Part shown: positions 56,161-59,410 of the stretch, piece by piece | How the letters are laid out: each line of letters begins with the position of its first letter | Position numbering within the stretch: position 1 is the stretch's first letter | Assembly: GCA_048571215.1 (NCBI GenBank) | Contig: CP182352.1 | Span: forward strand, 2,464,001-2,528,000 | Direction of reading: 5' to 3' | DNA length: 64,000 bases | Source: Halarcobacter sp. | GTDB lineage: Bacteria; Campylobacterota; Campylobacteria; Campylobacterales; Arcobacteraceae | The notes under the pieces: model-generated | Databases searched by the model: none | What the model was told of the DNA's origin: nothing | The model's input: the letters and a program-made list of their open reading frames with translations, nothing else | Position numbers and translations under genes: made by a program

Positions 56161-57039
56161 TTAATTTTTTATTTTTTTATTATATATCTTTATTTTCGTC
56201 TTGTATTTTGACGAATTGAGATAATTAGTTGGGAGACTAGGTAATTTTTTTTCTAAAATATATTTAGAAAGAATTGAACTAAGAATTATTTTTCTAATTT
56301 TATGTTCAATATAAATACCACACTTACAATTTATCATTGAAATGTTATAAAAACGATTCCATGTTTTACCATTATCTTGAGATATTTCTAGTTTGTTTTC
56401 ATTTCCTTTTAAATGTATGTCCTTATATCTCATATTTAATTTTTCAATAATTAACTTACTTGGGGGTAAAATTTTTATTTTTAGAGAAATTTCTCTTAAT
56501 TTTTCTCTAATTAAAATTACATTTCCTATACATTCTATATCCCAATTATCAATATATACATCCCATTTATTATTAATAATTTTTAACGATTTTTTTCCTA
56601 ATGAATTATAAAAAACTCCTGAAATCAATATTCCATTCTCATCTTTTTGTATAGATAAAATTGGCTTCTCATTTATTTGAATTAAGTTTTTACAATTTTT
56701 ATAATGTGTACCAGCTATGCTTATATCTAAATCATTATCTGAAAAATCAAAATATTCATGAGCAAATTTATCTGATAAACATTTTGGTTTTTCATTCGCT
56801 TTAATAACTTTTTCTAAAGATAAAACTCCTCTATTTCTTTTTTGATTACATTGCATACATAATAATGTAATTTCATCTTCACTATGTTCTAAAGCATCTT
56901 TAAATTCAGGATAGAAATGTTCATAATCATACCATGCAAATCCACATATTACACAGCCATAACCACATCTTTTTCTTACATTTCTTTTTATATCTGCTGG
57001 TATATTTCTAGATAAACCATGTTTGTTAATACTAGACAT
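56161..57039 (-). CDS. HNH-type endonuclease domain protein (likely start MSSINK at 57039)
   Basis: R.IPADIKR.VR.RCGYGCVICG...YEH...LLCMQCN Zn-binding beta-beta-alpha pattern; AGGAAAG RBS. Confidence 0.75.
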   Translation of the reverse strand: MSSINKHGLSRNIPADIKRNVRKRCGYGCVICGFAWYDYEHFYPEFKDALEHSEDEITLLCMQCNQKRNRGVLSLEKVIKANEKPKCLSDKFAHEYFDFSDNDLDISIAGTHYKNCKNLIQINEKPILSIQKDENGILISGVFYNSLGKKSLKIINNKWDVYIDNWDIECIGNVILIREKLREISLKIKILPPSKLIIEKLNMRYKDIHLKGNENKLEISQDNGKTWNRFYNISMINCKCGIYIEHKIRKIILSSILSKYILEKKLPSLPTNYLNSSKYKTKIKIYNKKIKN

Positions 57040-57119
57040 AACTTTCCTAAATAAAATTAATAAAATCATTATATTTAAAATATAATTTATTCTCTCTTGA
57101 AGAGTAAGCAGAGAAAAAT

Positions 57120-57360
57120 TTTCTTATGTAAATTGAATATCACACCAACTAAAACAAAATGGTACTAAAAAATGCAAAGGTCAATTTTCCCTATTCCCGC
57201 ATTTGAGAAGCCGAGTGTTTATTTATTGTTTCGGAGAAGTTTTGTAACTGTTTGAACAGAACAAATATGCTGGGAGCATATTTTTATGTGAGTTTTACAA
57301 AACAGAAACAATAAATAATAAGCGAGGGTAGTTTCACCTTCGAAACCCGCGGGATAATTC
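57120..57360 (+). repeat. Structured repeat copy A, left part (interrupted by IS110)
   Basis: Homologous to 59012-59260; identical 33-mer at 57194-57226 and 59086-59118. Confidence 0.9.
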
Positions 57361-57371
57361 GTATAATAAAA

Positions 57372-57600
57372 TATTGGAAATATGATAGTATATTTTCATA
57401 GAGTTCAATAGAAGATGATATATTGTGTGGGTGGTTGAAGCAATTAAAAATAATTTTAATTAGCTTGTAAAGAAGTTCAATAGTTATACTTCAAATTTGA
57501 GTGGCAACAAGAACAGTTTTATAACTAGTTCGTATTTACGAGTCTAAAGTTTGTATGACGAAATATCAGGTAGGAATTTTATTCCTACCCTAACGAACTC
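57372..57600 (+). ncRNA. Predicted IS110 bridge RNA
   Basis: TATAAT at 57362-57367; 5' hairpin 57372-57410; target-binding loop 57415-57487 (GGGTGGTT / GTAAAGAA); donor-matching GTGGCAAC at 57501-57508 and ACGAA at 57558-57562. Confidence 0.75.
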
Positions 57601-57626
57601 TTTATATTAATACAAAGGTTCTAGAT

Positions 57627-58610
57627 ATGTATTCTATCGGATTAGATATAAGTAAGTCAACAATTAATATTTATATCCCTATCAATGATTTAGATATTCA
57701 AATATCAAATAATTTGAAATCACTTAAAGGTTTTTATTCTAAGTTAAAAAAACTTTATAAAAAAGATATAGATAAACTTGTATTTGTTTTTGAACCTACA
57801 GCTAATTATTCCTTTTTAATTAAAAAGTTTTGTTCTGAAAAAAGTATACACTGTTTTATTGTTAATCCAAAGAAAAGTGCTAACTTTGCTAAAGCAATTG
57901 GTCAAAGAAATAAAACTGACCTTTTAGATGCTAGAATGTTATCTCAGATGATAGTTACTGCAAGAAAAAATCAGATTAAAATACCCATTATTAATCCTTA
58001 TGCCGAGGAATTAAAAGAGCTTATTACATATTATAAATTTATATCAAAAATTAAAACTCAAAATAAAAATCATTTGGAAGCTTTAGTTTCAAAAGATGCT
58101 TCATCTATTATAATTAAATCATTAAGAAAAGATATAAAATCATTTGAAAAAAAAGAAAAAGATATTCTTATTGAGATAAAAAAAGTTATTGCAAAAGACA
58201 AAAATTTACATAATGCATTTTTAAATATCCAAACTATAAAAGGCATAGGAGAATTATCTTCAATTATATTATTACACCATTTTATACAATATCCTGATAC
58301 AAATCAAAAGCAAATTGTTTCATTAGCTGGATTAGATCCAGTTAGTAGAGATTCTGGTTCATCAATAAAAGGAAAAACAAAAATATCAAAATCTGGTTCA
58401 AAATTATGTAGGGGTACATTATTTATGGCAGTAATGACAGCGATACAATACAATGAAGAATTAAAAATATTTTATAATAGATTAAAAGAGAATGGCAAAC
58501 ATACTACTGTAGCACAAATTGCTGTAATGCGAAAAATGATTGTAATTGCTCACTCATTATATAAAAATAATAATATATATGACCCTAATAAATTTAAAAG
58601 TATATCATAA
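57627..58610 (+). CDS. IS110-family DEDD recombinase (transposase)
   Basis: IGLDISK, FEPTA, KTDLLDA (DEDD tetrad), IKGIG, GLDP...DSGSS (catalytic Ser region), AVMRKM; uninterrupted ORF. Confidence 0.96.
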   Translation: MYSIGLDISKSTINIYIPINDLDIQISNNLKSLKGFYSKLKKLYKKDIDKLVFVFEPTANYSFLIKKFCSEKSIHCFIVNPKKSANFAKAIGQRNKTDLLDARMLSQMIVTARKNQIKIPIINPYAEELKELITYYKFISKIKTQNKNHLEALVSKDASSIIIKSLRKDIKSFEKKEKDILIEIKKVIAKDKNLHNAFLNIQTIKGIGELSSIILLHHFIQYPDTNQKQIVSLAGLDPVSRDSGSSIKGKTKISKSGSKLCRGTLFMAVMTAIQYNEELKIFYNRLKENGKHTTVAQIAVMRKMIVIAHSLYKNNNIYDPNKFKSIS

Positions 58611-58661
58611 ATATTAGATTTAAATATTTTATATTTTATCATTTTTTAAGGTGGCAACTTC

Positions 58662-58755
58662 TTTGCTACTTTCTTTTTCACAAAAGAAAGTCGATAGAAA
58701 TTAAGACGTATAGTAAAAGTTTATTTATACTCAAATATATTAATAATAGTTTTAA
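58662..58755 (+). repeat. Structured repeat copy A, right part
   Basis: tttgctactttctttt..cacaaaagaaagtcga..aagacgta..taaaagtttatttatactcaaatat..aatagttttaa matches 59259-59372. Confidence 0.9.
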
Positions 58756-58795
58756 GTGTATGCAATTATCTTGTAGAACAAAGTTCTCCGCTTTC

Positions 58796-58990
58796 TTTAC
58801 TTTTAGTGGTAAAAGTAAAACAAAAGCCACCAGACGGTTGTTGAAGCTAAAGTTCCCTACAGCTTTCTAATTATTTCCTGACCTGCGGGACGCCTTCCTA
58901 AAAGGTACATTCAGTACCTTTTATCCAGTTGAACGGTCCTCGGTCTTCTCCGAAAATAATTAAAAACCTTCCGGCTTCAACAAAGTCTGG
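58796..58990 (-). repeat. Structured repeat copy B (inverted, more diverged family member)
   Basis: Minus strand GAAGCCG..TTTCGGAGAAG..AGGGAAC.TT.GCTTC..TTTTG.TTTACTTTT..AAAAGTAAA matches copies A/C; nested stems 58830-58835/58985-58990, 58838-58847/58974-58983, 58899-58923. Confidence 0.75.
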
Positions 58991-59011
58991 ACAAATACTC
59001 TAGCCACGAAC

Positions 59012-59372
59012 TTTCTCTTAGTAATTGAGTATCACACCAGCTTAAATAAAATGGTAACAAAAAATGCAAAGGTCCTTATCCCACCTTCCCGCATTTGAGA
59101 AGCCGAGTGTTTATTTATCTCTTTTGAAAACAAGTGACTAAACTGTCTGAAGCGTAAAGAAATGTGCTGGGAGCACATTTTAGCAAGTTTTTAGGCACTC
59201 AAAAGGGATGAATAATAAACGAGGGAACCTTCGGCTTCGAAACCTGTGGGATGATTTTTTTGCTACTTTCTTTTTGCCTGCGAGCAGGATTGACATCACA
59301 AAAGAAAGTCGAGAAAGCCAAGACGTACATTAAAAGTTTATTTATACTCAAATATTTTGAAAATAGTTTTAA
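59012..59372 (+). repeat. Structured repeat copy C (uninterrupted)
   Basis: Full-length homologue of the rejoined copy A, with compensatory stem changes. Confidence 0.9.
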
Positions 59373-59410
59373 TTGGTGAGATACCCAATATATATAAAAT
59401 TTTAAATATA

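Follow-up and report, generated by a model that had tools for sequence, protein, structure and literature searches.

Among the closest described systems to the element reported here is IS621 of E. coli (Durrant et al. 2024, PMC11208160; Hiraizumi et al. 2024, PMC11208158). IS621 combines a DEDD plus Tnp20 recombinase with a bridge RNA in the left end, two guide loops, a CT donor core, and a 14-base window (bioRxiv 2025.05.14.653916, PMC11208158) of 7+2+5 positions in a palindromic repeat. It encodes ATCGGGCCTAC, and 129 of 173 insertion sites read ATCAGGCCTAC, which places guide G over target A (rG:dT) at position 4 (PMC11208160). ISPpu10 of Pseudomonas putida is a REP-targeting IS110 with a hairpin-forming target; its left interface contains a natural G:U, and wobble substitutions keep activity (bioRxiv 10.64898/2026.03.19.712850). 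Wobble tolerance has thus already been published for both systems, and it is a known source of off-target insertion by bridge recombinases.

Here, we describe an element, type A, in a 64,000-nt stretch of Halarcobacter sp. DNA (the window). Type A shares with IS621 the recombinase type, the left-end bridge RNA (here predicted), the two guide loops, the CT donor core, the 7+2+5 window, a palindromic repeat as target, and guide G over target A at position 4; with ISPpu10, it shares the natural left-interface wobble and the hairpin-forming target. It differs from IS621 in having as many as three wobbles in the left arm and a further one at the core, in combining a TT target with a CT donor (in IS621 both cores are CT, and donor and target were altered jointly when core changes were tested), and in using a mosaic repeat of several hundred bases rather than a short REP. 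Whereas ISPpu10 is reported to target identical copies of one sequence with a CT core, type A uses several subtypes with a differing core. The genome carries four identical copies of type A and three of a paralogue, type B (63% amino-acid identity), which has the same scaffold, left donor arm, and repeat family but different guides, a different site, and a CT core at both ends.

The reading that we favor, at a probability of roughly two-thirds, is that type A is a recently active IS621-like element whose G/U left guide copies a minor subtype of the repeat, with tolerated wobble opening the dominant subtypes, and whose CT donor goes into a TT target. The bridge RNA would encode the 14-base target TGGGTGG-TT-TCTTT, its left arm being an exact copy of the minor subtype of a dispersed palindromic intergenic repeat. 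With an all-G/U left arm and tolerated rG:dT and rU:dG, the same RNA could insert into GGGATAA and GGGATGG, the dominant subtypes here. The donor circle would carry core CT and the target core TT, the left guide reading the T and the invariant AG of the right guide reading T by a G:T wobble. Top-strand cleavage 3′ of the core would then preserve the target's core on the left side of the insertion and the donor's on the right. Pairing geometry, cleavage position, and rG:dT tolerance are taken from the IS621 work and are presumed to carry over. The clade of type A, for its part, provides a natural data set on wobble in both arms.

Results

Anatomy of the Element

The element in the region 57360–58659 is an IS621-type IS110 bridge recombinase. 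Its 327-aa protein is IS621-like within the IS110 family (PF01548, 57.1 bits; PF02371, 57 bits) and scores 159.9 against NF033542 (cut-off 140). The features of the locus are as follows.

57117–57359 (+): long hairpin segment that forms the left part of repeat copy A, with the left target and core at its end; DNA fold z −3.96
57351–57357 (+): left target, positions 1–7, GGGATAA; the guide encodes TGGGTGG, giving a mismatch at 1 and wobbles at 4, 6, and 7
57358–57359 (+): target-derived core TT at the left junction; three T in empty copies
57360–57626 (+): IS left end, with right-donor arm CGTAT, TATAAT box (57362–57367), and predicted bridge RNA
57428–57436 (+): left target guide TGGGTGG plus core UU; unpaired within a conserved scaffold, varying between sequences and tracking the target in relatives
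57467–57475 (+): right target guide; AG at 57474–57475 faces the core, 57469–57473 is TCTTT, and 57467–57468 is a possible extension
57501–57508 (+): left donor guide GTGGCAAC, identical to 58651–58658
57537–57542 (+): right donor guide TACGAG, complementary to CT-CGTA
57627–58610 (+): recombinase
58651–58659 (+): left donor arm GTGGCAA plus donor-derived core CT, right junction
58660–58666 (+): right target TCTTT (positions 10–14) plus GC
58660–59008 (+): remaining repeat cluster, a short palindrome and an inverted related unit
59009–59375 (+): repeat copy C, empty; site GGGATGA-TT-TTTTT at 59248–59261; fold z −5.61

The predicted bridge RNA runs from a 5′ hairpin through the target loop and the donor loop to a 3′ hairpin. 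A consensus of the noncoding left end from 14 sequences (type A and 13 relatives) had two-sided change in 18 of 53 pairs; in that consensus, no outer stem emerged for the donor loop. Its unpaired variable columns, 57424–57436 and 57467–57475, are the target guides and coincide with the stretches marked by the earlier note, a model's reading of the letters alone. The loop at 57424–57436, which holds the left target guide, consists exclusively of G and U. The right donor guide covaries with the left-end sequence in the type B paralogue and, being complementary to CT-CGTA, indicates that the donor core is CT.

With regard to a circular-junction promoter, the TATAAT starts two bases past the core. 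An end-to-end (circle) joint was not listed in four contig-only runs, a set unable to show absence, and an RNA-library contig spans 57359–57610 yet includes flank DNA and may itself be DNA. In the integrated copy, a TCGAAA hexamer from the repeat lies 16 bases before the TATAAT (window 57340–57367) and may form a hybrid promoter; this arrangement was found at 3 sites vs. 1.9 by chance. The 302-aa ORF directly left of repeat copy A (56161–57069, − strand) had no Pfam or NCBIfam match, and we take its CxxC and EH motif to recall HNH nucleases. By IS621 numbering, 57476–57477 and 57543–57544 would be the handshake bases UU and UC; with AA targets, the UU would form pairs ahead of exchange, and donor A would be paired by the U of the donor loop. 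Such pairings are described as inhibitory in IS621 (PMC11208158).

The Repeat

We aligned 65 related units of the repeat, which occur in both orientations and are clustered at ∼600-base spacing. The repeat is multicopy, clustered, and palindromic with inverted units, as REP/BIME-type repeats are; its intergenic position was checked in the window. Of 184 family genomes, 34 contain it, as do, by a manual count, 17 of the 30 with this recombinase clade; kin are not independent in these figures. Rfam gave three subthreshold matches and none at gathering level, and our literature search found no description of this repeat. As for a RAYT link, the genome has one PF01797 (Y1) gene, at position 2560411, with no unit of the repeat listed beside it. 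Elsewhere in the genome, counterparts of the units at 58660–59008 are targets of the type B paralogue. The type B sites (G000:C1 383486, 424826, and 969533) occupy another position in the same repeat family, such that two guides share one repeat in one genome.

Letters and Register of the Target Site

The earlier note had compared the left guide at 57429–57436 (GGGTGGTT) with the occupied left junction at 57352–57359 (GGATAATT) and counted three differences, all G-for-A, with two such differences in copy C at 59249–59256 (GGATGATT). Both counts hold. Three G-for-A in a single guide are weak evidence, since 22 of the 24 guide-compatible repeat sites have the same A at position 4; the informative part is the interchange of A and G across insertion sites. 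For the right guide (GTAAAGAA, 57467–57474), the U described as facing a right-flank G is present, but the G lies at +6, probably outside the obligatory window, and guide equals target there in only 7 of 66 pairs from relatives. A nonrepeat right flank in public run X6 retains GC at +6, a hint that U:G may count for type A. The right guide also extends one base farther, to 57475, where its last AG faces the core and adds a G:T at core position 1 that had been overlooked.

In the alignment, empty repeat copies read GGATRR-TTT-CTTTGC, with three T, and the empty-site joints in runs X2, X4, and X5 agree; the site is therefore LT-TT-TCTTTGC (LT, left target). The consensus 14-mer proposed from the window, GGRTRRTTYTTTRC, proved one T short. 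It has no match in the window, missing copy C, and six in the IS-removed genome (two in the repeat, four outside, none occupied; 2.6 expected). The corrected 15-mer, GGRTRRTTTYTTTRC, matches copy C and 25 genome sites in all, of which 23 are in the repeat, and covers all four occupied sites (0.9 expected). We rejected a register with a TT core on both sides, which would make empty sites one base shorter than the real ones. At locus L002, the interrupted host gene is in frame only with the longer register, a test blind to TT vs. CT.

Guide–Target Pairing in Relatives

Recombinase matches gave 179 loci after duplicate removal, from Arcobacteraceae and Sulfurimonas; both ends were parsable at 94, and 85 gave a left junction. 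Four loci were excluded for truncation, a wrong junction, a right end that did not fit, or an unclear register, and three registers were set by hand, the register of each relative otherwise being the best of three offsets by exact matches. The final set held 69 distinct pairs, or 66 from 44 guides without type A. In these 66 pairs, guides covary with target and donor, the left guide with the bottom strand and the right guide with the top. Guide and target match in 48–61 of 66 pairs at each position from −7 to +5, falling to 7 at +6 and 11 at +7, so that pairing spans the same 14-base window as in IS621. At the level of sequence comparison, we consider boundaries, cores, sites used, and guide–target covariation established.

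Wobble-type transitions exceed nonwobble ones (48/374 vs. 24/418; Fisher p 0.0007 over 66 pairs, with kin treated as independent), also when counted per distinct guide position (35/242 vs. 21/286, p 0.01, kin again treated as independent). The favored direction flips between the arms, as RNA–DNA geometry predicts: G-to-A 16/113 vs. C-to-T 7/91 on the left, C-to-T 13/109 vs. G-to-A 3/87 on the right. A hand count per guide, with wobble ahead in 16, behind in 12, and tied in 16, was not significant, and transversion mismatches are also common in relatives (67/792). One of the three type B sites has a nonwobble A-to-G mismatch. The wobble is real and works like that of IS621. Because variation at occupied sites is conditional on tolerance, the excess shows tolerance, not selection.

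Position 4 could instead be an extra DNA base and not a wobble, the guide recognizing the shifted register TGTGGG-(A bulged)-TRR. This is a point against the reading that we favor, for on paper a one-base bulge fits the dominant subtype equally well: dominant and minor subtypes differ by one inserted A, and the guide would then match TGTGGG upstream, with its U's facing two C/T-variable positions. We nevertheless judge it very unlikely. Relatives pair ungapped over seven bases (48–58 of 66 at each position from −7 to −1), rG:dT has been seen structurally in IS621 at the same position, and a type A insertion in a gene (run X6, below) aligns ungapped.

Among individual relatives, the guides of L002 and L138 are directed at another mobile element, their target being a motif conserved in an IS3-type transposase gene. 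At L005, the left junction has one base more at the left core than the usual repeat site, possibly a repair scar.

Unlike Cores

In all four type A copies, the core is TT on the left and CT on the right, only the second T being shared. Left cores in the 66 relative pairs are CT in 53, TT in 7, AT in 5, and CC in 1; the right core is CT because the parser required it, the frequency of differing right cores lying outside its scope. TT or AT thus stands against CT in 12 of 66. The core base of the left guide equals that of the left junction in 60 of 66 pairs (C/C 51, T/T 5, A/A 4), and the right guide ends in AG in all 66. Locus L101 has the same kind of junction as type A, with a TT core and an exact left guide.

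In IS110 elements, donor and target are expected to share one core dinucleotide, which recurs at either end; type A departs from this. As the first core base is described as less conserved (PMC11208158), we regard unlike cores as a variant feature and no ground for exclusion from the family. The type A junction pattern fits cleavage 3′ of the core; IS621 is reported to cut the top strands there, and the right guide then pairs the incoming donor core (PMC11208158). Products with mismatches beside the core and an unligated bottom strand are expected, judging from the accessible text of PMC13626964, and an unlike first core base may be resolved by the same repair.

The accessible parts of the literature compared (PMC11208160, PMC11208158, PMC13626964, PMC13604230, and bioRxiv 2025.05.14.653916, 2026.04.29.721476, 2026.08.31.748434, and 2026.03.19.712850) did not describe unlike cores in natural elements, but with subscription papers and bioRxiv supplements outside the comparison, such a description may be in print; literature searches on cores that are mismatched or heterologous, and on wobble in seekRNA, found no papers. 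Published designs pair sites with matching cores (bioRxiv 2025.05.14.653916), CT and GT cores are used as orthogonal (bioRxiv 2026.04.29.721476), and in the main survey the core was identified as the sequence repeated at the two ends (PMC11208160). The last procedure would misregister unlike-core elements by one base, as the earlier note did. If CT donors do work on TT and AT targets, target choice would be wider and core orthogonality weaker than assumed. Natural core mismatch is the least expected part of our results and is more worth testing than the wobble. A broader and tentative proposal, to which we give rather low odds, is that in this Campylobacterota clade CT donors naturally recombine with targets whose TT or AT core is specified only by the left guide, with many re-aimings at various positions in one undescribed mosaic repeat and with G/U-rich guides selected to span its subtypes.

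Sites Used in the Genome and in Public Runs

All four type A copies lie at one site of the dispersed palindromic repeat, two at GGATAA and two at GGATGG, so that both A and G are used at left-arm positions 6 and 7 and the two are interchangeable there, as the earlier note had proposed. The two GG copies (G000:C1 1705058 and 2826473) have a left flank of 146 identical bases to themselves (42 in the runner-up among 171 pairs); the four copies therefore probably represent about three independent events, not four. This flank points to gene conversion or to a repeat copied together with the IS. One GG copy shares 79 right-flank bases with the window copy (next best 67). The small number of cases counts against the reading that we favor: only four genomic copies from about three events, with runs X5 and X6 adding one contig each.

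The earlier note also allowed that the guide might simply match another copy of the repeat exactly. This is so for the left guide, which equals the minor subtype at genome position 382952 (9/9 bases plus core), but not for the full guide, which has no exact site in the IS-removed genome. The minor subtype, TGGGTGR-TT-TTTTT, has eight copies in sister genome G100 and four in G093; the GGATRR class has five and nine there, respectively. Position 1 of the left guide fits only the minor subtype, at 2 of 24 repeat sites, and mismatches the other 22.

That one RNA could cover many members of the repeat is borne out by a wobble site scan (14 bases, position 1 free, wobbles only) to the extent that 24 repeat sites have at most three wobbles, but 41 sites outside the repeat do likewise. 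Nine of ten one-wobble sites are in the repeat. Pairing alone would on these counts favor the repeat for GG sites, not for AA sites, and we suspect that the repeat hairpin or purifying selection adds to the preference. Occupancy of sites with C vs. T at position 11 was 4/17 vs. 0/6 (p 0.54). Beyond the element's own copies, the window guide was found at none of 214 loci and in no viral contigs or plasmids (DNA); the junction pattern gave chance matches only in 61 genomes, and a plasmid protein search for the recombinase gave only matches with <60% identity.

Part of the window is present in 15 wastewater runs, X5 among them. In one X5 contig, the element has the right-guide variant G57472A, with which all 14 guide positions match the minor subtype exactly. 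The G of the window reads C and T and the A of X5 reads T only; a range-widening change would look like this. In run X6 (one contig, depth ∼6), the identical bridge RNA follows a flank that, over 30 bases, is a Na+/H+ exchanger gene of this genome. The empty site, TTAGTAG-CT-TCTAT, has A under guide G at positions 3 and 6 and G at position 4; beyond position 1, 5 of 7 left positions are paired or wobbled, left arm plus core having three wobbles and one mismatch. The right side matches at 4/5, and these matches, absent from the contig, argue against a chimera. An empty site for the second X6 flank was not found in G000. The X6 insertion supports A/G interchange. It is also the one insertion of this bridge RNA seen outside the repeat, an outcome that the earlier note had named as contrary to its view; as it interrupts a gene, landing is not always safe, contrary to the idea of safe landing sites. 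Overall, the observation in that note is confirmed in part and its interpretation supported in part.

Corrected for register, that interpretation is of a selected degenerate code, with G/U kept at repeat-variable positions and the guide tuned to the family and to safe sites. The left loop is indeed all G/U, whereas the G+U fraction of 44 other guides ranges over 0.11–0.89; at position 7, where most sites have A (14/24), the guide has G, and its G at position 11 covers C (18) and T (6), unlike the A of X5. Elements with flanks resembling this repeat show 30 wobble vs. 6 nonwobble transitions (14 vs. 5 distinct guide positions) and others 18 vs. 18, a comparison made by hand and by eye. We consider such a code unlikely, however, because the exact-match subtype accounts for the left guide without selection for degeneracy, position 1 is mismatched at 22/24 sites, the X5/G000 change could have run either way, the 41 outside sites fit as well, and one insertion lies in a gene. 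In the reading that we favor, wobble would be tolerated slack that widens the range and is perhaps kept by selection.

Recognition might also be loose or led by structure, with right arm, core, and repeat hairpin deciding, the left arm minor, and the G-for-A incidental. The right arm is exact (5/5) in all four genomic copies, the left arm plus core of the X6 site is as divergent as described above, and the repeat folds strongly, the left target of copy C lying at the foot of a long stem. A stem-loop in the target is reported to raise the activity of ISPpu10, whose distal left positions tolerate any base (bioRxiv 10.64898/2026.03.19.712850), and half-match insertion exists in IS621 (bioRxiv 2026.08.31.748434). 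Such recognition nevertheless seems highly improbable to us: across 44 guides, the left guide covaries with the left target, the occupied copy does not show the same long closing stem in its minimum-energy fold, and the published half-matches concern donor arms.

Scar-Like Copy and Orphan Ends

At G000:C1:635818–635837 (− strand; locus L211), a repeat copy reads GGGTGG-TT-CGTAT-GC. Its five right-target bases are swapped, with length unchanged, for the first five bases of the IS left end, and it is possibly the trace of an insertion or excision that was aborted at a site matching the left guide exactly; under the clade-wide proposal above, it would be the footprint of an alternative resolution or excision path. 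A search of 24 further genomes of the genus gave no such scar-like copy. Five orphan right ends of the IS clade (G000:C1 810173+, 1718891+, 2553832+, 2557908+, and 478273−) have no recombinase match alongside. They are followed by GACCC-like targets, as in other relatives, and one lies 2.5 kb from the Y1 transposase gene at 2560411.
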